Assembly (NCBI GenBank): GCA_963740845.1
Contig: CAVUFM010000018.1
Span: 345,056 to 409,055, forward strand
Direction of reading: 5' to 3'
DNA from: an uncultured Solirubrobacterales bacterium
GTDB taxonomy: Bacteria > Actinomycetota > Thermoleophilia > Solirubrobacterales > 70-9
Length of the DNA stretch: 64,000 nt
The notes below the pieces were generated by a model. It was not told where the DNA came from. It saw only the letters and a list, made by a program, of their open reading frames with translations, and did not search any database. The position numbers and the translations under genes are program-made. Of the stretch, positions 7,341 to 63,075 are shown piece after piece. Position 1 is the first letter of the stretch. Each line of letters opens with the position of its first letter.

Positions 7341-7355
7341 CGAAGCGCACCCCGG

Positions 7356-20837: not shown

Positions 20838-20945
20838 TCAAGTCACATACCCCACGATTTCCGCCACCCGAGTGCGACGCGCCGGCGGCCCACTCGCAAT
20901 CGGTGGTCCCTGGACCCCTCTTTTGCGAGTTGGTCGGCTACCTAA
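20838..20945. repeat. copy of the dispersed intergenic palindromic element (hairpin module CTCGCAATCGGTGGTC..GACCCCTCT.TTGCGAG plus a partial GATTYCCGCC module)
   Basis: 20893..20929 ctcgcaatcggtggtccctggacccctcttttgcgag is near-identical to 38672..38707. 20856..20873 gatttccgccacccgagtg resembles the gattccgcccggtgg units at 38623 and 47094. Confidence 0.55.
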
Positions 20946-23064: not shown

Positions 23065-23954
23065 AGGTCGACGGCCGCCGGCTGTCGCTGACGAACCTCG
23101 ACAAGGTCCTCTACCCCCAGTCGGGGTTCACCAAGGGCCAGGTCATCGACTACTACGCGCGGATCGCGCCGGTGCTCCTGCCGCACCTGCAGGGCCGCCC
23201 GGTGACGCTGATCCGCTATCCCAACGGGGTCGAGGGCAAGTACTTCTACGAGAAGAACTCACCCTCCCATCGCCCCGATTGGGTGCAGACCGCGCCGATC
23301 TTCTCGGGCGAGCGCGCCGGGATCATCGACTACACGCTCGTCGAGGATCTGCCGACGCTGACCTGGCTCGCGCAACTGGCGGCGCTGGAGCTCCACCCGT
23401 CCCTCTCGCTGGCCGCGGCGATCGAACGCCCCACCGTCCTCGCCTTCGACCTCGACCCCGGCCCGCCGGCGACGATCGTCGAGTGCTGCCGCGTCGCCAT
23501 CCTGCTGCGCAAGCTGTTCGCCGGCTTCGGCCTCGAGTGCTTCCCCAAGAGCTCCGGCTCGAAGGGGATGCAGGTCTACGTCCCGCTGAACCGGGAGCTG
23601 ACCTACGAGACGACCAAGCCCTACGCGCGCGCCGTCGCCCAGGCGCTCGAGGCAGCCGAGCCGGATCTGATCCTCTCGCGGATGACGAAGAGCCTGCGCG
23701 CGGGGAAGGTCTTCGTCGACTGGAGCCAGAACACGCAGTCGAAGACGACGGTCGCTCCCTACTCCCTCCGTGCCCGCGAGGCACCGACCGCCTCCACCCC
23801 GCTGACCTGGGAGGAGGTCGAGGACGCGCTGGAGGCCGGGGACCCCGACTGCCTGCGCTTCGAGGGAGGAGAGGTGCTGGAGCGCGTGGAGCGACACGGC
23901 GATCTCTTCGCGCCGGTGCTCGAACTCGAGCAGGATCTGCCGGCCGCACCCTGA
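23065..23954 (+). CDS. stand-alone LigD polymerase/primase (PolDom) domain protein; start codon not identifiable
   Basis: RLSLTNLDKVLYPQSGFTKGQVIDYYARIAPVLLPHLQGRPVTLIRYPNGVEGKYFYEKN... matches the LigD Pol domain. No ATG, GTG or TTG exists in frame between the Ku stop and LSLTN. No ligase or phosphoesterase domain is adjacent. Confidence 0.75.
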
Positions 23955-24005
23955 CTCCACCAGCCGGGTTGCGGATTCACCCGATCGGACTACGATGAAT
24001 TCATC

Positions 24006-25972
24006 TTGGGGAATCAGGCGACACGAAGCGCTCTGCTGGTTGCGCTCCTCGTCGTCCTGATCGCACCCGCCACGGCTTCGGCGGCATGGACCGGACCGGT
24101 CGAGGTCTCAGCGGCGGGAGTGGGTGCTTCCACGCCGCAGGTAGGGGTCGACTCGCTTTCCAACGCGACCGTCGTCTGGACGAGCGGCGGCTCTCCCAGT
24201 CGCCAGATCCGCTCGGCCTTCCGCCCCGCGGGCGGGCCCTGGGAGACGTCCTTCACGCGGATCCCCGCCGCCCAGGACTGCTTCGACCCCGAGCTCGAGG
24301 TCAACGCGGCCGGCGCCGCCGTCGTCCTCGCCGACTGCGGCGCCGGATCGGCCCAGATGTATGCCGCCTACCGCCCCGCGGGCGGCAGCTGGTCGGGAGC
24401 CGTTGCGGTCCCCGGCTCCGGCTCCGGGGTCAGACCGCGCATCGACATGGACGACGCCGGCAACGTCATCGCCGTCTGGGAGAGCGCGAGCAACATCCAG
24501 TCCGCTTACCGGCCGGCCGCCGGGCCTTGGGCCGCCGCCGGTCAGGTCAGCCCCGCCGGGAACGTCGCGGTGGATCCCGACGTGGCGGTGAGCCCGACAA
24601 CGGGCCGGGCGGTCGCGGTCTGGCTGCATCGCCTCGAGCGGTTCGCGGGCGACCCCGTCGTGACGGTCGAGAGCGCCGACCGCGTGAGCGGCACCTGGGC
24701 CGCGACGCCGACCAACCTGTCTCGGCCCGCGTCCACGTCGACGCGCCCGGTCAGCGTCGCTGCCCCGAGGATCGACATCAACGCGCTGGGCTTCCGGGTG
24801 GCGGTCTGGACAGAGGACCCGGACAACACGATCGGGGACATGGGTCCGATCAGGATCACAAGCGGCTACGGAGACGGAGACGGACATGGGCCGGCTACCT
24901 CAACACCGGGTCGGTGACCGACGGCGTCCGCAACGCCGAGGCGCCGGACATGGCGCTCGACGACCAGGGCCAGACGGTGGCCACATGGCGTGGGTACGAC
25001 AGCGGCACCGGAACGTTCCGGACCCAGGCGGGGCGGATGCCGAGCCTTGGACCGCTCTGGTTCGGGCCCTCCACCCTTGCGAACACCGAGATCGGTGGGT
25101 CCGGCACACCGCACGTGGCGATCGACCCCGACGGCAACGCGACGATCATCTGGCACAACCTCGACTCGACGGTCGTCGCGGTCTCGAGACCAGCGGATGG
25201 AGGATTCGAACCCGGCGTGAGACCCTCTCCGACGACGGCTTCGGAGTTCCCCGGCTGACGATGAGCGACACCGGCGACACGATCGCGACCTGGACTTCGC
25301 AGGCGACCTCACCGGTGCGGACCGTCGTCGACGTCGACGACGTCAACCCGCCGGTCCTGGCGGCGATCGGCGTTCCCTCCACCGCGCGCCCCGGCACCAC
25401 CGTGAACGTCTCGGCCGCGGCGAGCGACGTCTGGTCGGCACCGGTGACGCTCACCTGGGACTTCGGCGACGGGACCACGGCCACAGGCACCTCCGCGAGC
25501 CACATTTACGGGACGGCGGGCGCCAGGACCATCACCCTGACCGCCGTCGACGCAGTGGGCAACACCGCCGTCGAGACCCGCTCGATCGAGGTCTCGGCAC
25601 CGGCGGCGGCAGCGGAGCACTCACACCTCGGCGTGACCGTCCCCAAGCAGTCCTGGAAGAAGATCCGAAAGGCGCGCGGGCTGAAGGTCCGCTGCACGCT
25701 CGACGCGGCCGGCGCCTGCGCGTGAAGGCGACCGTCGCGACGAAGGTCGCCCGCCGGCTGGGCCTGAAGGGCGCGGCGCCCGTGTCGGCACCGGCACGGG
25801 CGCAGTCGAGGCGGCGAACGGCACCGCCACCTTCAAGGTGAAGCTCACCCGCAAGGCGCGGGCCGCGATCGGTCACTCCGGCAGGAGCGTGCCGCTGAAG
25901 CTCGGGGTCACCGGGACCGCCCCCGGTCGCGAATCGGCGACGCTGACGAAGAAGTTGAAGATCAAGCGCTGA
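24006..25972 (+). CDS. large secreted repeat protein (about 8 W-containing beta-strand repeats, then a PKD domain and a C-terminal tail), at least four frameshifts
   Basis: Signal peptide MGNQATRSALLVALLVVLIAPATASA. Repeats VVWTSGG...SAFRPAGGPW / AAYRPAGGSW / SAYRPAAGPW / VAVWLH / VAVWTED / VATWRGYDSG / IIWHNLD / IATWTSQ. PKD-like WDFGDGTTATGTSASHIYGTAGARTITLTAVDAVGNTAVETRSIEV. The tail continues in other frames to a stop near 25972. Confidence 0.55.
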
Positions 25973-25974
25973 GG

Positions 25975-28423
25975 CTAAGCCTGCTTCGACCCGTGGGGCG
26001 CCGGCACCGAGAACGGCGCGGGTCGGCCCAGGTGATACCCCTGCAGCAGGTCGACTCCGAGGCCGAGGAGACGCTCGGCGGTCGCCGCATCCTCAACGCC
26101 CTCCGCAACCGTCTGCATCTCGAAGGTCTGGGCGGTCATGACGATCGATCGGACCACCCGCTCATCCGACTCATCGCCACCGACCAAGCCCCTGATGAAC
26201 GACATGTCGATCTTGATCTGGGTCACCGGCAGGTGCTTGAGATAGGTGAAGGACCCATAGCCCGTGCCGAAGTCGTCGAGGGCGACGCCACAACCAAGCT
26301 CGGTCAGCTGTCTCACGAGGACCTGCGCCGCCGCGACGTTCTCGGCCGCGGCCGTCTCGGTGATCTCGAAGATGACGTCGCCGGGGTCCGCGCCGGCGGC
26401 ATCCAGCGCCTGGCGGACCTGGTCGATCAGCAGCGGATTCCCCAGGCTCTTCGCTGACAGGTTGATCGCGACCGGCATCGCGCGCCCGACTGCGATGCCC
26501 CGCTCGATCGCCCAGGCGTCGATCTCGGTGATCTGATCGGTGCGCTCCGCGTGCGGCAGGAAGTCATTCGGAGTGATCGTCTCTCCATCCAGCTCCATCC
26601 GGATCAGGAGCTCGTGGTGGTGGACTGCGCCGGTGCCGGCGTCCACGACGGGCTGCGCCCAGAAGACGAGCCGGTCGTGTGCCAGCGCCTCCGCGGTGCG
26701 ACGCCGCCAGAGCTTGCCCTCGCTGTCGCGCCTCAGCTTCTCCTCGCGCCGCCGGCGGTCCGTCATGTCGTGCGCGCTCACCGATCCGCCGATCACCTCC
26801 CCAGCCAGGTTGCGGATCGGGAACGACCGCAGCGAGACGTCGAGCAGCTCCCCTGACTTGGTCACCCGTTGCGTCTCGAAGGCGAGCGGGATGCCCTTCG
26901 AGAGCGCGTCCCTGATCATCTCCGCCTCGCCGACCCGTGTCGGGCGGGATCATCAGCTCCGTCACCCGGGACCCGATCACCTCCTCGGCGGTGAAGCCGT
27001 AGAGCTTCTCGGCGCCTTCGTTCCAGGCGGTGATGACGCCGTCGAGGTCCTTGGAGAGGATCGCGTCCTCGGAGGAGCGGACGATCGCCGCCAAGCGCTC
27101 GTTCTCCTCCTCACGACGGCGGCGCTCAGTGATGTCGCGCATGAACGCCGTGTACATCGGCGGTTCGGCCTGGACCCTGGTGATCGCCAGCTCGACCGGG
27201 AACGTGCCCCCGCGGGCGTGGCAGGCCATGACCTCGACGCGCCGCCCGAGCATCGGCCCGTCAGCTCCGCCTGCGAGCCAAACCAGTCCCTCCCGATGCG
27301 ACTGACGCAGCGCGGGCGGGATGATCAGATCCGCGACCTCACGACCGATCGCCTCATCGGGCGTGTAGCCGAACGTCCGGGTCGAGGCTTCGTTCCAATC
27401 GCGAACGAAGCCACGTTGGTCGATCGTGACGATGCAGTCGAGTGCGGCCTTCGCCGACGCCCCCTGCAGCGCCCTCGCGGCCGATGCGTTGACGAGCGTC
27501 CGTTCGCGATCGCGGAAGAGGAGGATCACCTGCGCGATCCCTGCCACCAGAGTGGCCAGGGCGAGGCCGAACGTCACCGAGCCCAGCGGATCGAAGTGAT
27601 CGTAGGAGAGGACGGCGATCGCGGCCAGCACCGCCGTGATCGAGATCGCACCCGCCAGTCCCTCACGGCGGACCCCCTCTCGTTCCGCCTCCATCGGCAG
27701 CCAGCTCGCAAGCCCGATCGCCACCGAAGCGGCAGGCCACGCCACGTCGAGCAGGGTGCCGCTCTCGTACGTTCCCTGAGCCACCTGCACCCCGTAGATC
27801 AGATCCCCGGTCGCCATGAGCACGAGGCCGGAGAGGAGCAGTGCGAAGGCGCGGTCGACCTGCCAGTCGCGAGCTGCGATGGCGATCAGCGCGGAGGCGA
27901 TGAGCATGAAGTCCAGGAGCGGATAGGCCGCGGTCGTCGCCGTTGCGGCAACACCCCCGCCCGAGCTGCTCAGCACGTCCTCGAACACGAGCAGGGACCA
28001 GATCGTCGCCATGCCGAGGATCGAGACGACCAGCGCAAGTGAGATCGGGCCGGAGATGCGCGCCTTCCCCCCCAACCCCCTGAGACCGACGAGCAGCGCG
28101 ATGTAGAGCAGCAGGTAGAGACCATCGGCGAGCGATGGGTAGGACGTCGGGCCGAGCAGCGCGAAGTAGACGTCCCCGAGCGTCCAGGCGAGCATCCCTC
28201 CAGCGATGAGGGCCCAGGCCAACCGGTGCGAGGGCACCAACACGGCCCGGGCGGCGACCATGGCGGCGGATCCGCCCATCAGCGTGTAGTAGGAGACCTC
28301 CCGAAGGATCCCGACGGCGGGCGCAGACGATCCCGACAGGCTCGTGACCACGAGCACGCTGAGGACAAGCCCCGCTGCGGCCGTGGTCCTCCCTACCGGC
28401 CATGAGCCCCCACTGCGGTTCAT
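25975..28423 (-). CDS. membrane sensor with PAS domains and a C-terminal EAL (c-di-GMP phosphodiesterase) domain, frameshifted near 26930
   Basis: ORF 26564..28423: N-terminal multi-TM region then PAS (...DWNEASTRTFGYTPDEAIGREVADLIIP... ; ...VITAWNEGAEKLYGFTAEEVIGSRVTELMIP). ORF 25975..26919: PAS tail plus EAL (HHHELLIRMEL...EITE...DDFGTGYGSFTYLKHLPVTQIKIDMSFI). No GGDEF domain was seen. Confidence 0.8.
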
Positions 28424-28480
28424 GCTCGGACTATCGGCGCCCCCCGTTTCGACCTTTACCCGCCGAATGTCCGATGGCGG

Positions 28481-38529: not shown

Positions 38530-38710
38530 GGTCAGTTGGCGGAATTGCTGCCGCATGCGGTTGTGATTCCGCCCGGTGGCCTCAGGCGCAGGCAGTTGGC
38601 GTGAATTGCTGCCGGCATACGGAGGGATTCCGCCCGGTGGAGCCGACGGCCGACCCGGACCTCTTCACCAATCGCAATCGGTGGTCTATAGACCCCTCTA
38701 TTGCGAGCGG
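38530..38710. repeat. intergenic repeat cluster: two about 30-bp imperfect palindromic units 62 bp apart plus the hairpin module CTCGCAAT..ATTGCGAG
   Basis: 38541..38570 ggaattgctgccgcatgcggttgtgattcc; 38603..38632 tgaattgctgccggcatacggagggattcc, each followed by gcccggtgg. 38672..38707 tcgcaatcggtggtctatagacccctctattgcgag. It sits in the 450-bp convergent spacer between the esterase gene and ftsZ. Confidence 0.6.
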
Positions 38711-38858
38711 TGGGCCTGGGTCGAACCGCCGCGACCTGCCGCAGCGGCGGCGGGTGCCGGGGGTGCCGACCGGCCGCCCTCCCAATGCGAGCGGCAGCGA
38801 GCGAGCGCTAAGGCCGGGCGGCACCCCCGGTGCCCGGCGCCGCGTGAGGGTCCGGCCG

Positions 38859-39941
38859 CTAGTCCCTGAGGAAGGGCGGGATGTCGATCTCGTCGTCGCT
38901 CACCTCGAGCTGCCGGATCTCCCGGTCGCTCGGCGGCTTGACGCCGCGACGGCGGCTGCGGCGGCGGATGGCCTCGGGGCGGCGGGCGAGGAGCTCGAAG
39001 CCCTCGAAGCCGGTGGCGATGGCGGTGACGCGGAGTGCGTCGCCCATCGTGTTGTCGACGACCGCGCCGAAGATGATGTTGGCGCCCTTGTCGGCTGTGG
39101 AGGCCACGACCTCGGCGGCCTCGTTGACCTCGAAGAGGCCCATGTCCTCGCCACCGGTGATGTTGAGGAGCATGCCGGTCGCGCCGTCGATGGCGGACTC
39201 GAGGAGCGGCGAGGAGATGGCCTCGCGGGCGGCGTCCCCCGCGCGGCTCTCGCCGGCGGCGGTGCCGATGCCCATGAGGGCGGAGCCGGCGTCGGACATG
39301 ATCGCCCGGACGTCGGCGAAGTCGAGGTTGATCAGGCCGGGGACGGTGATCAGGTCGGTGATGCCCTGGACGCCCTGGCGAAGGATGTCGTCGGCCTTGC
39401 GGAAGGCCTCGCTGATCGGCTCGCGGCGCTCGACGATGTTGAGCAGCTTCTCGTTGGGAACGATGATCAGCGTGTCGACCTCGGCGCGGAGCTTCTCGAT
39501 GCCGTCGAGGGCCTGCTGCATCCGGCGGCTGCCCTCGAACTCGAAGGGCTTGGTGACGACGCCGACGGTGAGGGCGCCGATCTCCTGCTTGGCGATCTCG
39601 GCGATCACGGGGGCGGAACCGGTACCGGTGCCGCCGCCCTCGCCGGCGGTGACGAAGACCATGTCGGCCCCCTTCAGGGCCTCCTTGATGTCATCGCGGC
39701 TCTCGGCCGCGGCTCCCGCTCCGACCTCGGGCTGACCGCCGGCACCGAGGCCGCGGGTCAGCTCCTGACCGATTGCGAGCTTGACGTCGGCATCGCTTGC
39801 CCGGAGCGCCTGCGCGTCCGTGTTGACGGCGATGAACTCGACCCCTTTGAGACCGGCATCGACCATGCGGGAGACCGCGTTGGTGCCGCCGCCGCCAGCG
39901 CCGACGACCTTGATCACCGCGAGGTAACTGGAAGCCTCCAT
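38859..39941 (-). CDS. ftsZ: cell division GTPase FtsZ
   Basis: [23 protein letters not shown]...[17 protein letters not shown]... tubulin signature; last gene of the dcw cluster; no ftsA upstream. Confidence 0.95.
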
Positions 39942-40859: not shown

Positions 40860-41834
40860 GCTGATCGCCGGGAAGCCGCGAGAGGACGCGGCCGCTCACG
40901 CGGGCGAGCTCCCAGCCGGCCGGCCACTCGACGTCGCCGAGCACCTGGACCTCGGGCTCGAGGACGACGCCGCAGAGATCGAAGACGCGCCGGCGACCCT
41001 GAGCCATGAGCTCGAGGATGTCGGCGGTGGTCGCCTCCCCCATGTTCTCGACGAAGTTCGCGTGCTTCTCGGAGAACCGCGCGCCGCCGACCCGCAGACC
41101 GCGGCAGCCGGCGGCATCGAGCAGCATCCCGGCGGAGCGGCCTTCCGCGCGCGGGTCGTCGGGGTTCTTGAAGGTCGACCCGAAGGTCTTGATGCCGGAG
41201 GGCTGCGCCTCCTTGCGGCGCGTCCTCATCCCGGCGAGCGTCGCCTTGACCGTCGTCCGGCTCGGCGGGCGTGAGCTCGAAGGACGCCGCGGCGACGACC
41301 TCCCCCTCCCCGAGGTTCGAGCGCCGGTAGGTGAAGTCGAGGTCGGCGGGGACGCGGCGATCGGCGCCCTCGGCGGTGCAGACGTCGATCCACTCGAGCG
41401 TTCGCGCGAGCTCGCCGCCGTAGGCGTTCGCGTTCATCCGCACGGCGCCGCCGACGCTGCCGGGGATGTTCACCCCGAACTCGAGGCCGGAGAGGCCCCA
41501 GCCGGCCGACTTGGCGGCGGCCGAGGGCAGGCGGGCGCCGCCACCGCAGCGCACGCGGTCGCCATGGCGTTCGATCTGCGCAAGTTCACGGTCCAGCTTC
41601 AGCACGAGTCCTCGAAATCCGTCGTCCGATACGAGGAGATTCGATCCCGAGCCCACCACTCCTACCGCGGCTCCCAGATCCGCTGCGAAGCCGAGCAGCT
41701 CGAGGAGCTGCTCCTGGGAGCCCGCGCGGGCGAACATGTCGGCGTGTGCCGCCGGCCCGGACCGTCGTCAGCCGCGCCAGCGGGAAGTCGCGCTCGAGGC
41801 CCTCGGGGTCGCTCGACCTCTCCACCGTGCGCAC
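40856..41834 (-). CDS. murB: UDP-N-acetylenolpyruvoylglucosamine reductase, frame-split
   Basis: N-terminus MRTVERSSDPEGLERDFPLARLTTVRAGG (ORF 41586..41834); FAD-binding and core in ORF 40817..41737 (...VGSGSNLLVSDDGFRGLVL...NAYGGEL...); C-terminal KTFGSTFKNP... in ORF 39961..41229. Confidence 0.75.
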
Positions 41835-41859
41835 AGCCTCGGCGGTGATCGCGACTCCG

Positions 41860-43285
41860 GCTGACTAACCGGTCGGCGACCCGGAAGACGTCGCCGGCGC
41901 CGATCGTCACCAGGATGTCGCCGGCGCGGAGGTCCTCTCCGGCCAGTGCCTCGGTCGCGGCGTCGAGCCCGCCGAGCCAGCGGACGCGCTTGCCGGGAGC
42001 TGCGTCGGCGGCCGCCTCGGCGACCAGCAATCCGCTCACGCCCTCGAGTCGGCTCCTCGCGGGCGGCGTAGATGTCGAGCACCGCGACCTCGTCGGCGAG
42101 TGCCAGCGCTCGGCCGAACCGGCCCGCCAGCGCCTTCGTCCGCGAGTAGAGGTGCGGCTGGAAGACGGCGATCAGGCGCCCGCCCCGTGGCCTGGGCAGC
42201 TCGCGCAGCGCCCGCAGCGAGGCCTCCACCTCGGTCGGGTGATGGGCGTAGTCGTCGTAGATCAGCGCGCCGTTCCGCTCGCCCTTGCGCTCCAGCCGCC
42301 GGGCCATCCCGGGGAAGCTGGCCAGCGCCTCGATCAGCGCCTCGATCGCCGGCAGGTCCGGGTCGAGCTCACGCGCGGCGATCAGCGCGCCGAGCGCGCA
42401 GGTCGCATCGACGACGTTGTGCAGGCCGGGAACCCCGAGGCGGACGCGCCGCTCGCCGATCGCCTCCGAGATCAGCGTGAAGGTGGCGCCGCCCTCGGCG
42501 GGCTCGATGTCGGTCGCCAGCAGGCTCGCCGCGAGCGGTGGCGGGGAGCCGGGCTCGGTCACCGAGAAGGTCGAGATCACCCCGGCGCCGTCGAGCGCCG
42601 CGAGATCGGTGCCGGCGGGCCGGACCACGGCCGCCGCGCCGGCCGGTGAACCCGGCGAACGCCGCGAGCGAGCTCGCGCTCCCCTCCCCAGTGGGAGTGA
42701 TGGTCGAGCTCGACGTTGGTCACCGCCGCAACCTCCGGGTCGAGCCGGAGGAAGCTGCCGTCGCTCTCGTCGGCCTCGGCGACGACCCAGCCTCCGCCGC
42801 CCCAGGCCGCGTTGGCCGGCGCGCCCTCCGGGCCCGCCTCCCGGCAGCTCGCCGCCGAGCAGGAAGGCGGGATCGGCGCCCGCGGCCGCGAGGCAGTGGG
42901 CGAGCATCCCCGAAGTCGTCGTCTTGCCGTGGGCGCCGGCGACCGCGATCAGGCGCTTCGTCGCGCACAGCTCGGCCAGGAGCTCGCTCCGGTGGAGCTC
43001 GCGCTGACCGCGCTCGCGGGCGCGGACGAGCTCGGGGTTGTCGTCGGGGATCGCCGTGGAGACGACCACGTCGGCGCCCGCGGGCACGAGGTCGGCGTCG
43101 TGGCCGATTCGCGGCTCGATCCCCGCCGCGCGCAGCCGCTCGAGGTAGGCGGATTCGGAGCGGTCGGAGCCCGTGACCTCAGCTCCGAGCGCGTGGCAGG
43201 CGAGCGCGAGCGCGCTCATCCCGGCACCGCCGATCGCGATGAAGTGGAGCTCGCGCCCGGCGAAATCGGCCTCGGTCGGGCTCAT
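41860..43285 (-). CDS. murC: UDP-N-acetylmuramate--L-alanine ligase, frame-split; 3' boundary approximate
   Basis: [27 protein letters not shown]...[19 protein letters not shown]... inside ORF 41768..44371; C-terminal ...[20 protein letters not shown] in ORF 41662..42039. The ATG at 43285 overlaps the murG stop (ATGA). Confidence 0.8.
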
Positions 43286-44371
43286 CCTTCGATCGCCCCC
43301 ATGATCTGATCGGCGATCCGCTCGGCCGCGTCGGGCTTGGCGAGGGAGCGGGACGCGACCGCCATCCGCTCGAGCTCGCTCGGGTCGCCGAGCAGCTCCG
43401 TCAGCTCGGCGGCGAGCCGCTCCGGCGTCAGGTCGGCGTCCTCGATGACGCGAGCGGCGCCCGCGCGCTCCATCCACCGCGCGTTGGCGTGCTGGTGCAT
43501 GGCCGAGGCGTAGGGATAGGGAACGAGGACGGCCGGCTTGCCCGCGGCGGTGAGCTCGAAGACCGAGCCGCCCGAGCGCGCCAGGACCAGATCGACCGCG
43601 GCGAGGGCGTCGCCGAGGTCGGGCTCGTACTCGAGGAGCGTGTAGCGCTCGACGCCCTCCAGCTTCCCGGCGAGCTCCGCGTAGTCGCGCGAGCCGGCGA
43701 TGTGGAGCACGTGGAACGAGCGGTCGGCCGCCGCGCCTCCCGCGCCGAAGGCCTCCGCGGCTGCGGTGTTGATCGTCAGCGCGCCGAGGCTGCCGCCGAA
43801 GATCAGGACGGCGGGGTCGTCGGGGCCGATGCCGAACCGCTCGCGCGCGGCCTCGCGGTCCGCCTCGAGGATCGCCGCGGGCACCGGTCTCCCGGTCACG
43901 AGATAGCGGTCGCCCTCGCGGCCCTCGATCGGGAAGGCGAGGCAGACGCGCCGGGCGCGCGGTGCGAGCAGGCGGTTGGCGAGGCCGAGGTGGCTGTCGG
44001 CCTCGGTCAGCACGATCGGCAGCCCGCGGGAGATCGCGGCCGCCCCGACCGGCGCGGCGACGTAGCCGCCGCCACCCATCACGGCGTCGGCCCCGCGATC
44101 CCGGAGGAGCTTGCGCGCCACCCGCACGGCCCCGACTGCCCTGGCGACCGCGCCGGCGGCACGAATCGGGTTCTTGCGGTCGATGCCCGCGGACGTTGAG
44201 GAAGTCGATCTCGTAGCCGGCCTCGGGCACGAGCTTCGCCTCGGCGCGCTCGCGCGTCCCGGCGAAGGAGACCTCGGCGCCGCGCTCAGTGAGCGCGTCG
44301 GCGACGGCCAGCGCTGGAACCACGTGCCCGGCTGTCCCGCCGGCTGCGATCACCACTCGCGGCACGGGCAC
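43282..44371 (-). CDS. murG: UDP-GlcNAc:undecaprenyl-PP-MurNAc-pentapeptide GlcNAc transferase, frameshifted near 44130-44200
   Basis: N-terminus MPVPRVVIAAGGTAGHVVPALAVADAL (ORF 41768..44371); the rest is in ORF 43282..44127 (...GGGYVAAPVGAAAI...LVTGRPV...). Confidence 0.85.
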
Positions 44372-44374
44372 CTC

Positions 44375-45627
44375 CCGCGCGCGGACCGGTCCGGCCTCCG
44401 TCGATGACCGCGAACGGCTCCCGCGGGCGTCGCCTCGGCACGGCGGCGCTCGATGCTGAGCCGCCGTTGGCGATGTTGAGCAGCAGGCCGACGGCCGCGA
44501 GGGTGACGATGAGGCTGCTGTTGCCGTAGGAGACGAATGGGAGCGTGACTCCGGTCAGCGGCGCGAGGCCGAGAACCGCGAAGAGGTTGATCGAGGCCTG
44601 GACCAGGATCATCGCCGTCAGGGCGGCGGCGAGCAGGCGACCGTAGCGATCCTTCGCGTGCTGAGCGGTGCGGAAGCCCGCGTACCCGAACATCATGTAG
44701 AGGCCGCAGAGGAAGGTGATCCCGAGCAGGCCGAGCTCCTCGCCGATGACCGCGGCGATCATGTCGGTGTGGGCCTCGGGCAGGTAGAAGGCCTTCTGGA
44801 CGCTCTCGCCGATCCCGGTGCCGAAGATCCCGCCGGAGCCGAGCGCGATCGACGCCTGCATTCCCTGGAAGCCGGCCCCCGAGGCGTCCGCGCTCGGGTT
44901 GACGAAGCTGGTCAGGCGCGCCATCCGGTACGGCTCCATCAGCACGGCGAGGAAGACGATGAAGAGCAGCGCGCCGCCGAGCATCGCGAGATGCCGCAGC
45001 TTCGCGCCCGCCGCGATCAGGAGCGCCGTGACCGAGACCGCGGTGACCATGCCGGTTCCGAGATCGGGCTCGACGACGATCAGCATGCAGACCGCGCCCG
45101 CGACGAGCAGGAAGGGCGAGAGCCCGCGGAGGTCCCGGGTCATCTGTCGGGCGCTCGGCGAGCAGGTGCGCGCCGTAGAGCATCAGCGTGACCTTGGCGA
45201 TCTCGGACGCCTGGATCTGGACCGGCCCGAGGACGATCCAGCGCTGGGCGCCGTTGACCTCGGCCCCGATCACCTTCGTCGCGAGCAGCAGGAGGACGGC
45301 TCCGGCGAGCAGGAGCGGCGTCAGCTTGCGGACGGCGCCGAGCCCGTAGCGCGCCAGGAAGTGGAGGGCGAACAGGCCGAACGCGCCGAACATCAGCGTG
45401 CGCTTGAGGAAGAACGCGCCGTCGCCGTTCTCACCGAGGAGCGCTGCGCTCGAGCTTGCGCTGAAGACCATGACGACGCCGAACGCGAGCAGGCACATCG
45501 TCGCGGTCAGCAGGAGCTGGTACTCGAGGGGATGAGACGACGTCTTCGGCTTGGCCTTCGCCTTCTTCCCGCCCTTGGCGCGGCGACGGCCGAAGCCGCC
45601 GCGGAGGGAGCCGACGGCGCCGCTCAC
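44375..45627 (-). CDS. ftsW: SEDS-family peptidoglycan glycosyltransferase FtsW, frameshifted near 45150
   Basis: ORF 44350..45627 (TM-rich N-terminus, QLLLTATMCLLAFGVVMVFSASS) and ORF 44286..45143 (...GTGIGESVQKAFYLPEAHTDMIAAVIGEELGLLG...). Confidence 0.85.
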
Positions 45628-46989
45628 GATGCGGCTCCCAGATCAGCGACCAGGTCGCGGAAGCTGTCGCCGCGCTCCTCGTAGTCGCGGAAGGCGTCGA
45701 AGCTGGCGCAGGCCGGTGCGAGCAGCACGGTCTCGCCGGGCACGGCGGCGTCAGCGGCGGCGCGGACGGCGGCGTCGAGGTCGCCGACCTCGAGGAGCGG
45801 GACGCCGGCCGGACCGAGGTCCTCGCGCAGGCGCTCGGTGGCGTCGCCGATCAGGTAGCAGGCGGTGCAGTGGGCGGCGACCGCCGGGCGGAGCTCCTCG
45901 AAGCCCCCGCCCTTCAGGCTGCCGCCGAGGATCGCGTGGACGCCGGTGCCGAACGCCTCGAGCGCGGCGGCCGCGGCGGCGACGTTGGTCGCCTTGGAGT
46001 CGTTGACGAAGACGACGCCGTCGAGCTCGCGGACGCGCTCGAGCCGGTGCGGGACACCGGCGAAGGTGCGCAGGCCGCGGGCGACGAGCTCGCGGTCGGT
46101 CCCGGCGGCGAGCGCCGCCGCGGCGACCGCCATCGCGTTGCGGACGTTGTGCTCGCCGGCGAGCGGCAGCTCCTCGCGGCGGACCAGGACTCCCGCCGGA
46201 GTCGCGGATCTCGCCGTCGGCGTAGGAGATGAAGCAGCGCTGCTCGTCGACGCAGGCGTCGATCCCGTAGGGCTCGCGGATCGCCTCGCCGGGAAGGGCG
46301 ACCTGGCCGACGATCTCGTCGTCGGCGTCGACGATCGCCGTGTCGTCGGGGCTCTGGTTGGCGAAGATGCGGAGCTTCGCCTCGGCGTAGGCGGCGAGGG
46401 TGCCGTGGCGGTCGAGGTGGTCGGGGGTCACGTTGAGCAGCACCGCGACGTCGGGCGCGAACGCAACCGAGTCCTCGAGCTGGAAGGACGAGCACTCGCA
46501 GACCACCGTCGCCTCGGGGTCGAGCGCGCCGTCGAGGGAGGCGAGCGGGGTGCCGACGTTGCCGGCGACGGCGACCTCGTGGCCGGCCTCGCGAAGGGTG
46601 TGGCCGAGCCACTCGGTGACGGTGGTCTTGCCGTTCGTCCCGGTCACCGCGAGGAAGCGATTGGGGAGCAGGCGCCAGCCGAGCTCGAGCTCGCCGATCA
46701 CATCGAGGCCGCGCTCGCGCGCTGCGGCGATCACCGGCGCATCGGCCGGAACCCCCGGGCTCTTCACCACGGTCCTCACGTCGTCGAGCAGCCCTGTCCC
46801 GTCACCATCCAGTTGGAGTTCGACGCCGAGGTCCGCAAGCCTCCCCGCATCGGGAGGATTTCCGGTGTCGGTGCCGATGACGCGCTCGCCGCGCGCGCGC
46901 AGCGTCACGGCGGCCGCGACGCCCGATCGAGCCAGCCCGACGACGAGGTAGGGACCGGGTGGCAGAGGTGGGCGCGGGCTGGTGGACAT
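45624..46989 (-). CDS. murD: UDP-N-acetylmuramoylalanine--D-glutamate ligase, frameshifted near 46150
   Basis: MSTSPRPPLPPGPYLVVGLARSGVAAA...AVTGTNGKTTVTEWLGH (ORF 45751..47097) and a C-terminal domain in ORF 45624..46133. Confidence 0.85.
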
Positions 46990-47064
46990 AACTGCGATCC
47001 CTTTCGCCGGGAAGGCGCGGGCTCCCCCCTGTCGAGGCGGAACTCCGGGGCGCCGGTGGGGCCG

Positions 47065-47165
47065 GGTCGGCGGATTTACTCCGGCATATCGGAGCAATTC
47101 CGCCCAGTGGGGCCGGCCGCACGCAGTGAGTGGAATCGCTACCGCATGCGGTAGCGATCCCGCAG
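47065..47165. repeat. intergenic repeat inside the dcw operon (between mraY and murD): two about 30-bp palindromic units 61 bp apart, the second containing a perfect 24-bp palindrome
   Basis: 47071..47100 ggatttactccggcatatcggagcaattcc then cgcccagtgg. 47132..47161 ggaatcgctaccgcatgcggtagcgatccc, with atcgctaccgcatgcggtagcgat a perfect palindrome. Same architecture as 38541..38632. Confidence 0.6.
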
Positions 47166-47179
47166 ACTGCGGCCGCCCG

Positions 47180-48205
47180 TTAGATGCCGATGTTGTTCTG
47201 GAAGAGCGTGTATCCGATCCCCGCGAACACGGCCGCGACGATCCAGAAGCGGAGCATGATCTTCGTCTCCGACCAGGCGAGCATCTCGAAGTGGTGATGG
47301 ATCGGGGCCATCAGGAAGACGCGCCGGCGGAAGCTCTTGAACCAGAGGACCTGGATCGCGACCGAGAGCGCCTCGATCACGAAGATGCCGCCGAGGATGA
47401 TCAGGAGCACCTCGGTCTGGGTCATGATCGCGAACGCGCCGACCGCTCCTCCCAGGCCCAGTGAGCCCGTGTCCCCCATGAATATCTGGGCGGGGAACGC
47501 GTTGAACCAGAGGAAGCCGACCGAGGCGCCGACGAAGCAGGCCGAGAGCAGTGCGAGGTCCTCCTGGCCGGTCGTGATCGTGATCGCCAGATAGGCGAGG
47601 AAGACGATCGCGCAGCAGCCCGCGGCGAGGCCGTCGAGCCCGTCGGTGAGGTTGACGCCGTTGCTGGCGCCGGCGAGCACCAGGAACGTCAGCACCATGT
47701 AGACGACCGGGCCGAAGTAGATGTCGGCGTCGAAGACGCGGATCTGCAGGCGCGCGTCGAGGCCGACCTGCTCGAAGGCGAGCCACCAGAGGGCGACCGC
47801 GAGCAGGATCTGGACGGTCAGCTTCCAGCGCGCCGAGAGGCCGAGCGAGCGCCGCTTGATGATCTTGATGTAGTCGTCGGCGAACCCGAGGGCGGCGCTG
47901 CCCATCGCGATGCCGAAGACCGCGAGGCTCTCGGTGTCGCGGTCGGAGAGCACGAGATAGGGCACTGCGATCGCGGCGAAGATGATCAGCCCGCCCATCG
48001 TCGGCGTGCCCGCCTTGGAGTGGTGCCCCTCGGGCCCCTCCTCCCGGATCTGCTGGCCGAACTCGCGCTCGCGGAGCTTCTCGATGAACTTCGGCCCGAG
48101 GAAGATCGTGATGAGCATCGCGGCCATCCCCGCGATCAGGATCGCCCCGCGGTCCACCGGGACGGTGCTCAGGCCGTCGGTCTGAGCGAGCAGCAGGGCG
48201 GTCAT
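47180..48205 (-). CDS. mraY: phospho-N-acetylmuramoyl-pentapeptide transferase
   Basis: 341 aa polytopic membrane protein with MraY motifs (...DDYIKIIKRRSLGL...NAFPAQIFMGDTGSL...HHHFE). Confidence 0.95.
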   Translation of the reverse strand: MTALLLAQTDGLSTVPVDRGAILIAGMAAMLITIFLGPKFIEKLREREFGQQIREEGPEGHHSKAGTPTMGGLIIFAAIAVPYLVLSDRDTESLAVFGIAMGSAALGFADDYIKIIKRRSLGLSARWKLTVQILLAVALWWLAFEQVGLDARLQIRVFDADIYFGPVVYMVLTFLVLAGASNGVNLTDGLDGLAAGCCAIVFLAYLAITITTGQEDLALLSACFVGASVGFLWFNAFPAQIFMGDTGSLGLGGAVGAFAIMTQTEVLLIILGGIFVIEALSVAIQVLWFKSFRRRVFLMAPIHHHFEMLAWSETKIMLRFWIVAAVFAGIGYTLFQNNIGI

Positions 48206-49565
48206 CCGTCCGCCTCCCCGATCCTGGCGCGCAGGGCGTCGGTGAGCGCCTCGAGGCCGACCGAGCGCGAGCCCTTGATCAGCGCGACGTCGCCGGGGCC
48301 GAGGATCCGCTCGGCCAGCTCAGCTCCGGCCAAGCGGGTCGGGCGCCCACTCGTCGGGCGAGTAGTCGCGGGCGAGGTCGCCGACGCCGATCAGCGGCGA
48401 GATCGCCCAGCTCCCGCGCCCGGGCGGCGATCTCGGCGTGGAAGCGCGGTCCGTCGGGGCCGAGCTCAGCCATCCCGCCGAGGATGCCGACGCGGCGCCG
48501 TGGCGCCGGGACCGACGCGAGGTGCTCGATCGCGGCTCGCATCGAGATCGGGTTGGCGTTGTAGCAGTCGTTCAGCAGGAGGATCTCCCGTGCAAGCTCC
48601 ACCCGCTCGCCGCGCAGGCGCGAGAACTGTATCCGTGACGTCAGCGGCGCCATCTCCCCCGGCTCGATTCCCAGCGCGGTGCCGATCGCGATCGCGCAGA
48701 GGGCGTTGGTGAGGTTGTGCGCCTCCTCGAAGGGGAACGAGAAGTCCGCCTCGCCGAGCGGCGTCGAGATCCGGGCCTCGATCGACCCGCCGACCACCCG
48801 CGCGGAGATCGCGTGGACGTCGCCCCCGGTCCCGAACGTGGTCGTGTCGAGATCCGCTCGCAGGTGCGGCTCGAGCGTCTCCGCCTCGGCCGGGACGACC
48901 GCGCGCCCGTCCGGTCCGAGGCCGCGAAGGATCTCGGCCTTCGCCTCGGCGATCGCCTCGACCGTGCCGAGGAGCTCCAGGTGCACGGGGCCGACGTTCG
49001 TGATCGCGGCGACATCCGGCTCGGCGATCTCGCAGAGCTCGGCGATCTGGCCCATCCCCCGCATCGCCATCTCCATCACGAGGACCTCGGTCTCGGGCGG
49101 CGCGGCCAGCAGCGCGAGCGGCATCCCGATCTCGGTGTTGAAGTTCTCCGGGCTCGCGTGGACCCGCCGCGGCAGGATCGAGCGGGTGATGTCCTTGACG
49201 GATGTCTTGCCGGTCGAGCCGGTGACTCCGACGAGCGGGCAGCCGATCTGCCGCCGCCAGGCGCGGGCGAGGCCCTGAAGCGCCATCAGCGGGTCCTCGG
49301 CCGCGAAGATCCATCCGTCGGTGTCTCCCGGCGCAGCCAGCTCGGCCGCCCGGCCCGCCCCGACGACGACTCCCCAGACGCCGCGCTTGAGCGCCGCCTC
49401 GGCGAAGCGCCCACCGTCGACGCGCTCCCCGATCAGGCCGAAGAAGAGGTCGCCCGGCGCCAGCCTCACGGGAGTCGATCGTCGCCCGCTCGGGCCTGCC
49501 GCCCGTCGCCGCGCTGAAGGATCGTCGCGCCGGCTTCGGCTGCGATCCGATCGGGGTCGAGCTCG
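48202..49565 (-). CDS. murF: UDP-MurNAc-tripeptide--D-alanyl-D-alanine ligase, frame-split
   Basis: ORF 48279..49628 body (...VGVTGSTGKTSVKDI...NFNTEIGMPLALLA...LLNDCYNANPISMRAAIE...); the N-terminus lies in other frames next to the murE stop. Confidence 0.8.
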
Positions 49566-49566
49566 A

Positions 49567-51107
49567 TCACGCGCCTCCCCCCAGTCTGCCCGCCCCGAGC
49601 CGCGCGAGCTCCTCGCGGGCGACGTCACGGTCGTCGAAGGGCTCCTTGCGCCCGCCCTCGAACTCCTGGCCCTGCTCGTGGCCCTTCCCGGCGATCACGA
49701 CGAGGTCACCCGAGCGCGCCTGACCCAGCGCGGTGGCGATCGCTCGCCGGCGGTCGGCGTCGACGACGATCGCCTCGCGGCGTTCCGCCGGGAGTCCATC
49801 GAGCCCTTCGAGCATCTGGGCGATGATCGCCTCGGGATCCTCGGAGCGCGGGTTGTCGGAGGTGACCACGGGGACGTCGGAGAGCTCGGCGCCGGCACGG
49901 CCCATGAGGGGCCGCTTGGTGGCATCCCGGTCGCCGCCGCACCCGTAGACGCAGATCAGGCGCCCTTCGGTGAGTCGCCGGGCCGCGGTGAGCACGTTCT
50001 CGAGCGAGTCGGGAGTGTGCGCGTAGTCGACGATCACCCCGAAGTCCTGCCCTTCGTCGACCGGCTCCATCCGGCCCGGGACGGGCTCGGCGCCGGCGAG
50101 CGCCGCGGTGGCGACGTCGAGGTCGACTCCCAGCGCGCTCGAGCAGCCCAGCGCGGCGAGCGCGTTCTCGACGTTGAAGTGGCCCGGGAGGCCGAGCGTC
50201 GACGTCGCGGACCGACCCATCCGAGGTGCGCAGCTCGAACCGGGAGCCGGTCGCGTCGAAGGAGACGTGGTGGGCGCTCAGGTCGGCGTCGGCCCCCGCC
50301 GCCGAGAACGAGGTCGAGGGCGGCTCGCCCGGCGGCGCGCAGCTCGGCGAGCAGCCCGGCGCCATAGGGGTCGTCGACGTTGATCGCCGCCGCCTCCGGC
50401 GCGATCCCCGCTCCCCCGGGGTCGGGCTCGAACAGGAGCCGCTTCGCCGCGAAGTAGTCCTCCATGTCGGCGTGGAAGTCGAGGTGGTCCTGGGTCAGGT
50501 TGGTGAAGGCCGCGACGTCGAAGGCGATCGCATCGGCGCGGCCGAGGACGAGCGCGTGAGAGGAGACCTCGATCACGCAGGCGCGGTCCCCGGCGTCGAG
50601 CATGCGGCGGAACGTCCGCTGGAGGTCGATGGCCTCCGGCGTGGTGCGGACGACCGGCTCCTCCACCCCGCCGACGACCTGCTTCACCGTCCCGAGGAGA
50701 CCGCAGGACATCCCGGCGGCTTCGAGGATCGTCCGGGTCAGGAAGGCCGTCGTCGTCTTCCCGTTCGTCCCGGTCACGCCGACCATCCGCAGCTCGCGGC
50801 TCGGCTCGCCGAAGAACGCGGCGGCCAGCGGAGCCATCGCGCGGCGGGTGTCGGCGACCAGGACCTGCGGGACGTCGAGGTCGAGCTCGTGGTCGACGAC
50901 CAGCGCCGCCGCCCCGGCCTCGACGGCCGCAGGGGCGAAATCGTGGCCGTCGGCGGTGTGGCCGCGGACGCAGAAGAACAGCGTTCCCGGCTCCACCAGC
51001 CGGTTGTCGAAGGCCAGGTCCGCGATCTCGACCGCGCTCGCGGTCCCCTCGCCGCGCAGCACGCGCGCGGGCAGGCCGGAGCCGTCGAGGAGCTGATCGA
51101 GCCTCAT
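49567..51107 (-). CDS. murE: UDP-MurNAc-L-Ala-D-Glu--2,6-diaminopimelate (or L-Lys) ligase, frameshifted near 50225
   Basis: ORF 50034..51107 (MRLDQLLDGS...VGVTGTNGKTTTAFL...) plus ORF 49567..50220 (...DYAHTPDSLENVL...GCGGDRDATKRPLMG...VVIAGKGHEQGQEF...). Confidence 0.85.
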
Positions 51108-51149
51108 CCAGCCCGATTCTAGGTTCGGAGGTGGCGGCTCTTAGATAAC

Positions 51150-51222
51150 CGCGGATCCTCGGCTTCGCGTCCGGTCCGGGTGACCCCGGATCCTCGGCTT
51201 CGCGTCCGGTCCGGGTGGAGGC
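51150..51222. repeat. perfect 2 x 35 bp tandem direct repeat in the ftsI-murE spacer
   Basis: 51153..51187 ggatcctcggcttcgcgtccggtccgggtgacccc and 51188..51222 ggatcctcggcttcgcgtccggtccgggtggaggc; the first 30 nt are identical. Confidence 0.7.
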
Positions 51223-51227
51223 CGGGT

Positions 51228-52929
51228 TCAGCTCGTCGGGGCGATTCCCAGGTAGGGAAGCGCGAAGCTCGCGATCTCGCCGAAGGCGGGCGCCGCGACG
51301 GTGCCGCCGTAGTAGTCGCCGCCCTTGGGATCGTCGACGATCACGGAGACGAGCAGCTTCGGATCGCTCGGCCGGCGCGAAGCCGACGAACGAGGCGACG
51401 AACTGGGTGTCGGAGTAGGTGCCGTCGATGACCTTCTGCGCGGTTCCGGTCTTGCCGGCGAGCACGTATCCGGGAACCTCGACCTCGGGCGCGGTGCCGA
51501 ACGGCCCGAGCACCCCCTCGAGCATCGTCCGCAGCTCGGCCGAGGTGCTCTCGCTGATCACGCGCGTTCCCTCGGGCTCCTCGACGGGGTCGCCATCGAC
51601 CGACTCGATCAGCCGCGGCGGGCGGAGGGTGCCGCCGTTGGCGATGGCCGCATACCCCTCCATCATCTGCATCGGGGTGACCGAGAGGCCCTGGCCGATG
51701 GGAAGGTTGCCGATCGAGGAGCCGGAGTAGTCCTCGAGCGCCGGGACGATGCCCTGCTCGTCGGGGGAGTACTGGATGCCGGTCGGGTGGCCGAAGCCGA
51801 AGGTGTCGACCCACTGGCTGAAGCGCTCGGATCCCAGCTCGAGGCCGATCGTGACCGCGCCGACGTTCGAGGACTGGGCGAGGATGTCGGAGGTGGTCAG
51901 CGTCCGGTAGCCGAGGCCCTCGTGCGCCTCCTCGATCGTCCGGTCGGCGACCTTGATGGAGGGGCCGACCTCGAACTCGGTGTTGGGCTTGACGGTGCCG
52001 TCCTCGAGCGCGCCGGCGACGGTGAAGGCCTTGAACGTCGAGCCGGGCTCGTAGGTGTAGCCGGTGGGCATGTTCACGGTCTGCTCCGCCGTGGCCTCGC
52101 TGAGGTCCGCCGGGTCGATCTGCGGCCAGCTCGCCATCGCGAGGACGTCGCCGCTCTGCGGGTTCATCACGACCGCCGTCGCGCCCTCGGGGTCGTAGGT
52201 GTCGCCGAGGTCGCTGAGGACCTTCTCGGTGTAGGCCTGGATGCGGCCGTCGATCGTCAGCTGGACGTCGTGGCCGGCGGCGGCGCCGGTGACGACGTCG
52301 CGGCCGATCTCCTGGCCGAGCGCGTCCCTGGTGATCGAGACCTCGCCGTCGGTGCCGCTCAGCTCGTCGTCCTCGTTCGCCTCGATCCCGAAGAGACCCT
52401 GGCCCTCGTCGCCGATCGCGCCGATCATGCGGCCGCCGTCCGTCGCCTGCGGGTACACGCGCCGGGAGTCGGGCAGCTCGCCGATCCCGTCGAGCTCGAG
52501 CTTCCGGACCCGCTTGGCGGTGACGAGGTCGACCTTCTTGGCGAGGTACTCGAAGCCGGTCTGGGCGGTGAGGCTGCGCAGGAGCTCGTCCTCGGGGACG
52601 TCGAGGACCTCGGCGAGCTTCCCTGCGGCCTTCGGGGGATCGACCACCTGGTAGGGGGTCGCGAAGATCGTGGCCGCCTCCTCGGAGACGGCGAGGGCGC
52701 TGCCGTTGCGGTCGAGGATGGAGCCGCGGATACCGGGGACGGTCACCGTCGCGACCTGCTGGTTGCGCGCGTCCGTGGCCAGCTCGTCGCCCTTGACCGC
52801 CTGCAGGTAGGCGGCGCGGGCGAAGACGACGAGGAACGCGACGGCGAAGACCGCGAACAGGAGGCCGGAACGCCTCTCGATCAGCTTCATCGCGAGCGCT
52901 CCCTCACGCGACTCGCGGCCGCTGCTCAC
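51228..52929 (-). CDS. ftsI: penicillin-binding protein (class B transpeptidase, FtsI type), frameshifted near 51370
   Basis: N-terminal TM (LLFAVFAVAFLVVFARAAY), dimerisation domain, transpeptidase motifs STFK (...EPGSTFKAF...), SSN (...AQSSNVGA...), KTG (...AGKTGTAQK...). The true C-terminus ...DPKLLVSVIVDDPKGGDYYGGTVAAPAFGEIASFALPYLGIAPTS* was found by hand translation. Confidence 0.85.
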
Positions 52930-55219: not shown

Positions 55220-55487
55220 GCAGGTTGTGAGCCGGTTGCTTCGAAACTTGTCCCTGTGGGTGTTTCGAAGGCGACGCTGAGAGAGCTGGCCGGAGAGGTG
55301 AGGTGGGAGGAGCCTCGCCCCTCCGGCCTGCTGATCTCAACTGGCGCGGCACAGTAACCCACGTGGACCCACTGCGCAACACACCAACACACCGCGTATT
55401 GGATCGGGTCCGTCGGACGGCATTGCTAGCCGGCTCGCGGAACACCTCCTATCCCGCATGAACTGAGCGCTCTCGGGCGCTTCTGAG

Positions 55488-62974: not shown

Positions 62975-63013
62975 CTGACGGGTCAGCGCGGCCCTGCCGA
63001 GCGGCCTGGACTA

Positions 63014-63040
63014 CGTCCCGTGGTCCACATGGGACCACAG
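63014..63040. terminator. bidirectional terminator hairpin between the convergent 62510..62974 gene and the nfeD-like gene
   Basis: cgtggtcc-acat-gggaccacagg; perfect 7-bp stem GTGGTCC/GGACCAC with a 4-5 nt loop. Confidence 0.5.
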
Positions 63041-63075
63041 GACGTCGCGCAGGTCCCCTGCGACGCCCTTCGTCC

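Follow-up and report, generated by a model that had tools for sequence, protein, structure and literature searches.

Results

The dcw cluster of the window

The window, by which we mean the whole 64-kb stretch of DNA analysed here, has a G+C content of 72% and carries its dcw cluster on the minus strand, with murB between murC and ftsQ. It belongs to an uncultured soil actinobacterium, and the proteins that match its own best come from MAGs labelled Solirubrobacterales or Thermoleophilia. Two non-coding sites are the subject of this report: site A, the spacer between mraY and murD, and site B, the 450-bp convergent intergenic region between ftsZ and an esterase gene. The flanking genes and the conserved part of the site A spacer are as follows.

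mraY: 47180-48205, minus strand; stop codon at 47180-47182
murD: 45624-46989, minus strand; ATG at 46989; in two frames, with an assembly indel near 46192
conserved murD leader: 46990..47050, minus strand; CAGGGGGGAGC...CCGGCGAAAGG...ATG, ribosome-binding site included; the orthologous, non-repeat part of the spacer
ftsZ: 38859-39941, minus strand
esterase gene: ends at 38408, plus strand; convergent with ftsZ

The quality of the assembly limits what can be read from this region. A tblastn comparison with the dcw proteins of a relative revealed frame changes in the PBP gene, murE (two), murF (two), murD, ftsW, murG, murC (three) and murB. About 12 frameshifts were placed in the interval 41800-51400 (near 51367, 50329, 50190, 48404, 48320, 46192, 45144, 44186, 42850, 42650, 42060 and 41100-41250), and the indel rate in the essential dcw genes is about 1 per kb; no frameshift interrupts mraY or ftsZ. 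This suggests an error-prone, indel-prone long-read assembly rather than pseudogenes. Because of these frameshifts, single-base details of the repeats, such as a spacing of 60 versus 61 nt or an extra T in unit B2, are not to be trusted. Genes are likewise fragmented in the long-read MAG locus of one relative, L123.

Two gene calls in the window deserve comment. Ku and the LigD primase-polymerase domain form a single 605-aa ORF (22137-23954, plus strand) and are two adjacent genes in the related loci L121, L122 and L123; the single ORF may be a genuine fusion or may stem from one more assembly indel. ARAGORN called a tRNA-Leu(GAG) at 42725-42811 on the minus strand, within the coding region of murC. 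Such a call in high-G+C coding sequence is almost certainly false, and no other tRNA was found in the window.

Four palindromic units in two tandem pairs

Sites A and B hold four homologous palindromic units arranged as two tandem pairs, A1/A2 at site A and B1/B2 at site B.

Unit A2: 47114..47179; a 66-nt near-perfect hairpin that begins 1 nt past the mraY stop; core palindrome 47132-47161, apex GCATGC
Unit A1: 47063..47108; palindromic; core 47069-47104, apex GCATAT; closest to B2 and in the same (+) orientation
Unit B1: 38533..38578; core 38541-38570, apex GCATGC
Unit B2: 38593..38640; a direct tandem copy of B1, apex GCATA

All of the units, which range from 46 to 66 nt, are hairpins with one plan. 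The outer arms (CAGTnnGCGGRAT / ATYCCGCnnnCTG) and the apex (GCATGC or GCATA) are conserved, and the inner stem is variable and self-complementary. A2 is the top-scoring hairpin of the entire 64 kb. The sequences quoted in an earlier note on this DNA are all there, and the note measured the spacer from the mraY stop to the murD ATG, at 190 bp, as we do. Its dimensions for the repeats need adjustment: the part of A1 given as 47071-47100 lies at 47072-47101, the spacings of 61 and 62 bp are periods of 60 nt (site A) and 61 nt (site B), and the supposed unit size of about 30 bp falls short of the 46 nt over which homology and pairing extend in each unit (CAGT..GGCGGAAT....ATTCCGCC..CTG) and of the still longer A2 hairpin. 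The 13-nt linkers of the two pairs, read directly, agree at only 7/13 positions.

The likeness among the units is not due to chance. Within the window, BLAST aligned B1 with B2 at 88% over 49 nt (E 1e-6), A2 with B1 at 80% over 40 nt (E 4e-6) and B2 with A1 at 82.5% over 40 nt (E 3e-5), with E-values among the units ranging from 1e-6 to 7e-4. The pattern proposed in the earlier note, searched with up to 3 mismatches, matched only 38541-38570 and 47132-47161, where 100 shuffles gave an expectation of 0.00. An HMM of the four units detected no additional copy anywhere in the 64-kb window.

B1, B2, A1 and a fifth unit from a relative (L121, below) share one orientation. The B1/B2 alignment scores 27 in the direct sense and 6 when inverted; the two members thus lie in the same orientation and the B pair is a direct tandem repeat. 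The relative orientation of A1 and A2 is ambiguous because A2 is nearly symmetric. With respect to dcw transcription, unit orientation is inconsistent. The units carry stops in all frames (for example ATG CGG TAG).

A separate hairpin module

A different hairpin module, M, lies beyond the B pair at site B and recurs once in the window.

Module M, copy 1: 38666..38715; a TCGCAAT-CGGTGGTC-TATA-GACCCCTCT-ATTGCGA hairpin, 25 nt beyond B2
Module M, copy 2: 20886..20935; flanked on one side by a secreted-protein gene specific to the lineage and on the other by the conserved stretch next to the promoter of a GlxA/AraC-DJ-1 regulator gene

The two CTCGCAAT modules are 87.5% identical over 40 nt (BLAST in the window, E 6e-9) and differ at the centre, TATA in one and CCTG in the other. 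The left arm of the site B copy, quoted previously as CTCGCAAT, reads ATCGCAAT. M was considered as a diverged unit, its CGCAAT/ATTGCG stem being set against the CGGAAT/ATTCCG stem of the units, and was rejected when neither HMM nor BLAST gave significant similarity. Since the unit HMM misses the CTCGCAAT module, there are two families and not one, and the single family that the earlier note counted in "3 of about 10 intergenic regions" merges the units with M. The CTCGCAAT module appears to be a second, unrelated small hairpin repeat with habits like those of the units. The M pattern had 0 matches on viral contigs.

Module M bears on the idea, also raised in the earlier note, that these elements are operators. 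Under this reading the units, or M with its GGTC..GACC core of a GntR/HutC-type-like kind, would bind a dimeric regulator. The dyad symmetry and the conserved outer half-sites at a fixed distance would suit such a role, as would the position of M copy 2 about 90 nt upstream of the GlxA/AraC-type gene, and the M core TGGTCTATAGACC may resemble the DasR dre consensus. Yet M copy 1 has no downstream gene, the centre of M varies between TATA and CCTG and is one base longer than the dre spacing, and the orthologous GlxA/AraC genes of L121, L122 and L123 have no M in front of them, although the promoter-proximal GGCGGAAATCGTGGGGTATGTGACTTGACGGAC is conserved there. The units themselves fit no better. 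Their inner 12-14 nt differ among copies and are nevertheless self-complementary, so that the inner stem covaries instead of being conserved; a hairpin needs this and an operator does not. Each unit site lies 3' of a gene or in a convergent intergenic region. We consider an operator set highly improbable.

Several other features near M or similar to it were seen. A predicted secreted or anchored protein of 411 aa, with no Pfam match, is encoded at 20838-22073 (minus strand) between Ku and the GlxA/AraC gene and adjoins M; its position holds no gene in L121 and an unaligned 341-aa gene in L123. The open frame of this gene through M to 20838 probably reflects an assembly indel. Other strong intergenic hairpins lie at 63005-63053, 19058-19104, 8460-8507 and 55284-55332 (scores 11-12.5; not unit-like by HMM). 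One of these four, GTGGTCC-ACATG-GGACCAC, has a core that recalls module M.

A fifth unit and empty sites in relatives

Related loci were fetched via homologues of MraY, FtsZ and AraC. Such a search of related genomes, which the earlier note had suggested, turned up a further copy, intergenic like the others. This fifth unit, CAGTGTGCGGGATAGGGCCAGCATGCTGGCCATATTCCGCCCATTG, lies at 7920-7965 of L121, the locus of the nearest relative; the covariance model R1 gives it 62.5 bits (E 3e-12). L121 comes from the Logan assembly of run SRR21620494, and the same contig encodes the best MraY match, 95% identical. As this is an independent assembly, it argues against the unit being an artefact. In its outer arms and GCATGC apex the fifth unit agrees with A2 and B1. 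It departs from them in the inner stem, GGCCAG/CTGGCC where theirs are CTACCG/CGGTAG and CTGCCG/CGGTTG, and this stem is nevertheless complementary.

The fifth unit occupies a convergent intergenic region between a GntR-aminotransferase gene and ligD. It is orthologous to neither site in the window and has no link to the dcw cluster. The interval between these two genes was compared in three loci:

window, 23955-28480: about 4.5 kb of extra genes from ligD to the GntR-aminotransferase gene, including an EAL-domain protein (25978-26949)
L121, 7560-8082: a 523-bp intergenic region holding a hydrolase-like gene remnant and the fifth unit
L123, 16862-16872: the corresponding interval

L123, a more distant relative than L121, also aligns with the window on both flanks of sites A and B, with the inserts missing. 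In this comparison its mraY-murD spacer is 82 bp and that of the window 209 bp, and its ftsZ-esterase region is 143 bp and that of the window 488 bp. The presence of a unit at a non-orthologous site, together with the empty sites in L123, therefore identifies a lineage-restricted dispersed repeat, not an operator set. None of the five units overlaps coding sequence; they stand at gene 3' ends or in convergent intergenic regions, and every unit site is a place where gene content or order differs among relatives.

There are 4 units in the 64-kb window, 1 in 34 kb of the nearest relative and 0 in about 240 kb from eight other related loci, mraY-murD spacers included. Model R1 recovers exactly the five units in 222 kb plus L123, and its sole other matches are weak (12-16 bits), to hairpins in the mraY-murD spacer of L042. 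These are possible distant relatives of the units and were not counted. Searched across 185,579 species genomes, GGAATYGCTNCCGCATGCGG matched 33 times, each time as a single chance match in unrelated phyla and never as a full unit. In JGI metagenome contigs, CCACYGGGCGGAATN{4,5}CCGN{4,6}CGG had 77 matches, all of them by chance. Each pattern specified exactly either the inner stem, which varies, or one flank and is too strict for a unit like that of L121. A looser pattern, GCGGRAT-N7-GCATGC-N7-ATYCCGC, had 0 matches on viral contigs. Plasmid BLAST with site A returned just one 38-nt chance match, and a literature search on Solirubrobacter repeats gave nothing relevant.

As the 64 kb contain just two unit loci and the public scans found none, one could doubt that a family exists. 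Two similar pairs would also arise from one local tandem duplication combined with one ectopic gene conversion across the 8.5 kb that separate the two intergenic regions, or from an assembly artefact, and the dcw genes do carry roughly one indel per kb. However, a homologous unit occurs at a different locus in an independent short-read assembly of another organism. The units also differ by 12-30% (BLAST), so they are not recent assembly duplicates, and fold-back errors do not yield diverged 46-nt palindromes in the middle of a contig. A purely local event or artefact is therefore very doubtful.

Covariation and RNA folding

Covariation-supported structure, on which the earlier note had made the general significance of the repeats depend, is suggested by the five units together. 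In the five-unit alignment 85% of cells are paired, compared with 24-48% when the partner is slid, and 6 pairs are changed on both sides. The covariation score and the count of pair types were exceeded by 0/500 shuffles. With the four window units alone, covariation is not significant. These statistics come from five related sequences and are only suggestive, and homogenisation of palindromes at the DNA level could mimic selection for pairing.

Folded as RNA, the site A region has a predicted energy of -111 kcal/mol (z = -4.8), and 0/200 shuffles fold as well. The predicted energies of individual units on the two strands are as follows.

B1: plus strand -33.0 kcal/mol, with five G-U pairs; minus strand -20.0 kcal/mol
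L121 unit: plus strand -34.6 kcal/mol; minus strand -25.3 kcal/mol
A2: plus strand -44.1 kcal/mol; minus strand -46.2 kcal/mol
A1: plus strand -26.1 kcal/mol; minus strand -29.1 kcal/mol

At site A, and on the plus strand of site B, each unit folds alone. On the minus strand of site B the units cross-pair into one long stem. A scan for canonical U-tract terminators found 0 terminator-like sites at either locus; the U-less type reported in Actinobacteria was outside that scan. The stems continue into CCGCC.. and not into T runs. No sigma-70-like promoter was found at site A or B.

These properties raise the question of whether the units are a dedicated cis-regulatory RNA. They would then be selected modules for 3'-end formation or processing, acted on by RNase III, another double-strand cleavage activity or a hairpin-binding protein. 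How strongly the two dcw halves are expressed relative to each other would depend on the hairpins, and the likeness between the sites by mraY and ftsZ would reflect co-regulation and not selfish spread. In the window both dcw sub-clusters do have members of the unit family at their 3' ends. Conservation of the apex and outer arms goes together with a covarying inner stem, and the roughly 25 uninterrupted pairs of A2 are long enough for RNase III. The G-U pairs are biased by strand, 5 vs 0 in B1 and 3 vs 0 in the L121 unit, which hints that they work as RNA read in the same direction as the esterase and GntR genes; strand-biased C-to-T mutation is an equally possible cause.

Other observations run against a dedicated RNA. 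The favoured strand at site B is the plus strand, in the esterase sense and antisense to ftsZ, and ftsZ already has a conserved terminator-like hairpin of its own (about 38812-38838), closer to the gene than B2, B1 or M. The inconsistent orientation of the units relative to dcw transcription is not expected of such a device, the fifth unit is unconnected with dcw, and relatives at about 80% nucleotide identity lack units at both sites. Rfam, which the earlier note had proposed to consult, recognises no family here. The whole window gave 0 matches at gathering thresholds, and in E-value mode site A drew only generic miRNA-hairpin matches of at most 22 bits, against thresholds of 57-97, and site B none. 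Overall we regard a dedicated cis-regulatory RNA as unlikely, and return to one further point in its favour below.

The mraY-murD junction and an unrelated repeat in relatives

The earlier note described the site A element as inserted inside the dcw operon. The related loci do not bear this out: mraY and murD are separated by a non-overlapping, hypervariable junction in 9/9 of them, ranging from 82 bp to 5.3 kb with unrelated content, and in two it holds a gene on the opposite strand.

L123: about 80% nucleotide identity to the window; junction 82 bp
L004: MraY 88% identical; junction 138 bp
L002: MraY 89%; junction 250 bp, with a duplicated element of about 100 nt
L041: MraY 92%; junction 363 bp
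L042: MraY 90%; junction 616 bp, internally repetitive
L039 and L040: MraY 93%; an opposite-strand DUF559 gene in the junction (L039 11026-12312)
L001: MraY 95%; junction 5.3 kb (5390-10732) with three genes, namely SnoaL/cupin, an AAA-TPR-GerE/LuxR-type regulator and a hypothetical gene

Conservation in the junction is confined to the last 50 nt or so before the murD ATG, a stretch that contains GGCGAAA and the ribosome-binding site. As opposite-strand genes can sit there, the spacer is probably the boundary between two transcription units, judging from gene arrangement. Thus mraY is probably the last gene of an upstream dcw unit (mraZ to mraY), and murD probably the first gene of a downstream unit (murD to ftsZ). 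At site B the ftsZ-proximal 110 nt or so, with the terminator-like hairpin, occur in L041 as well, and the distal part, which is lineage-specific, contains B2, B1 and M.

Another dcw spacer expanded by a hairpin repeat was noticed between the PBP (ftsI-like) gene and murE. This spacer is 124 bp long, compared with about 47 bp in relatives, and contains the strongest tandem repeat of the window, 51148-51217 (2.0 copies of 35 nt, 97% identity), each copy of which can form a hairpin.

Relatives carry a different repeat, which we call E-type, near the same genes. It is a hairpin element of about 100 nt with a closing stem CTGACGG...CCGTCAG and a central hairpin showing compensatory changes, is unrelated to the units and is absent from the window.

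E-type copies after mraY: L001 5390-5498; L038 2953-3043; L039 11056-11158; L002 11017-11119 and 11122-11225 (tandem); L004 11017-11118
E-type copy after ftsZ: L123 11073-11174 (83% over 100 nt, E 2e-24)

An unrelated element at the same two kinds of flank makes the 3' flanks of mraY and ftsZ recurrent landing places for hairpin repeats. Either these flanks are merely permissive landing sites or a stem-loop is useful there. That the E-type family occupies the same two kinds of site in relatives is the further point in favour of a cis-regulatory RNA. It also allows a bolder proposal, namely that the 3' ends of both dcw halves may need a strong U-less stem-loop, a need met repeatedly by recruiting mobile hairpin families such as the units and E-type. 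The repeats would then be domesticated, interchangeable cassettes that coordinate cell-wall and division expression and not neutral passengers. We think this quite unlikely.

Discussion

The units are a new sequence family of a known kind: homologous, dispersed, intergenic, hairpin-preserving and restricted to one lineage. The suggestion of a short dispersed MITE/REP-like family in the earlier note was well placed, given the fifth unit at a non-orthologous L121 site, the empty state of both sites in L123 and a hairpin kept through two-sided changes. On balance we favour, with some reserve, the reading of the units as lineage-restricted non-coding palindromic repeats of the REP/BIME/MITE-like kind.

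REP sequences are among the known systems that come nearest. RAYT transposases mobilise REPs and REPINs, which are short, imperfect, lineage-specific palindromes confined to extragenic DNA, often at gene 3' ends or between convergent genes and often in closely spaced pairs; as ssDNA or mRNA they are expected to fold into hairpins (Bertels & Rainey 2011, PMC3116915; PMC3337134). The units are likewise imperfect, extragenic, paired and lineage-specific palindromes at gene 3' ends or in convergent regions. However, a REPIN is an inverted doublet that forms one long hairpin, whereas the B pair is a direct tandem, and a REP has about 20-25 nt, whereas a single unit is already a long hairpin of 46-66 nt. 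The host also differs, being a Thermoleophilia actinobacterium where the described systems are mostly from Proteobacteria. A Pfam scan of about 40 reading frames of the window found no transposase, RAYT, IS or cas domains, and all were housekeeping genes. To our knowledge, REP-like repeats are hardly documented in Thermoleophilia.

The BIMEs of enterobacteria, mosaics of palindromic units, offer a second parallel, as arrays of related, non-identical palindromic units with fixed spacing in intercistronic or 3' positions. The units come in two apex types, GCATGC and GCATA(T), and beyond the array at site B comes a hairpin module of another kind. BIMEs act as 3' stabilisers of mRNA, which matches the function that we propose below for the units. 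In contrast to the units, BIMEs alternate in orientation and have defined linker motifs, some of which bind IHF or gyrase; there is also no sequence similarity. Compared with a MITE, the entire unit is the inverted repeat; the empty sites of L123 are too diverged to define a target-site duplication and the window has no IS.

The MIRUs of Mycobacterium tuberculosis resemble the units in their actinobacterial host, in being tandem direct repeats of about 50-100 bp with variable copy number and in their intergenic positions, which include gene-cluster spacers. MIRUs are not long palindromes, whereas the units are defined by their hairpin. MIRUs, as Supply and colleagues reportedly described in 1997, carry small ORFs that overlap the stop and start codons of flanking genes. 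The 60-61 nt tandem period would fit a MIRU, but this reading was rejected: the sense strand of the spacer has early stops, so ORF coupling is absent. The Correia (NEMIS) repeats of Neisseria and the enterobacterial ERIC repeats are hairpin repeats co-transcribed with their neighbours, and their cleavage by RNase III or RNase E alters the stability of flanking mRNA. As small hairpin-forming repeats they serve as a model for the cis-regulatory RNA reading. They differ from the units in being 100-150 bp long, with distinct terminal inverted repeats, in duplicating a TA target and in numbering hundreds of copies. A CRISPR array would also fit the 60-61 nt period and was rejected, as the members of a pair are only about 60-88% identical and homology fills 46-49 of 61 nt, with about 13 nt between. 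Readings as attC sites, tRNA-derived elements or small ORFs were rejected on anatomy.

Taking the units as mobile palindromic repeats, they would have spread as DNA, by one of two routes. They may have moved through a hairpin-recognising enzyme encoded elsewhere in the genome, of the RAYT/IS200 type or similar. Alternatively, template switching or gene conversion between copies may have spread them, and local tandem duplication could have followed either route. Where transcribed, the units would fold into very stable stem-loops of about -23 to -46 kcal/mol, by the folding models, with no U-tract. Such stems could act as U-less terminators, as barriers to 3' exonucleases, or both. At site A the hairpins would mark the 3' end of the mraZ-mraY unit, before a separately expressed murD-ftsZ unit, and at site B they could act likewise in the convergent ftsZ/esterase region. 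Any effect at site A is probably incidental or weakly beneficial and not that of a dedicated regulatory device.

These results add to the Thermoleophilia a defined repeat family, with a covariance model and a search pattern (GCGGRAT-N7-GCATGC-N7-ATYCCGC). In this clade, moreover, a hypervariable spacer that gathers hairpin repeats and even whole genes divides the "conserved" dcw cluster between mraY and murD, a split that matters for inferring operon structure from gene order. Annotators should read the spacer neither as a regulatory RNA nor as a CRISPR remnant. Canonical terminators are scarce in a high-G+C organism. Should the units indeed terminate transcription without a U-tract, or stabilise RNA, they would illustrate how mobile DNA can supply 3'-end signals in nature to a high-G+C host.
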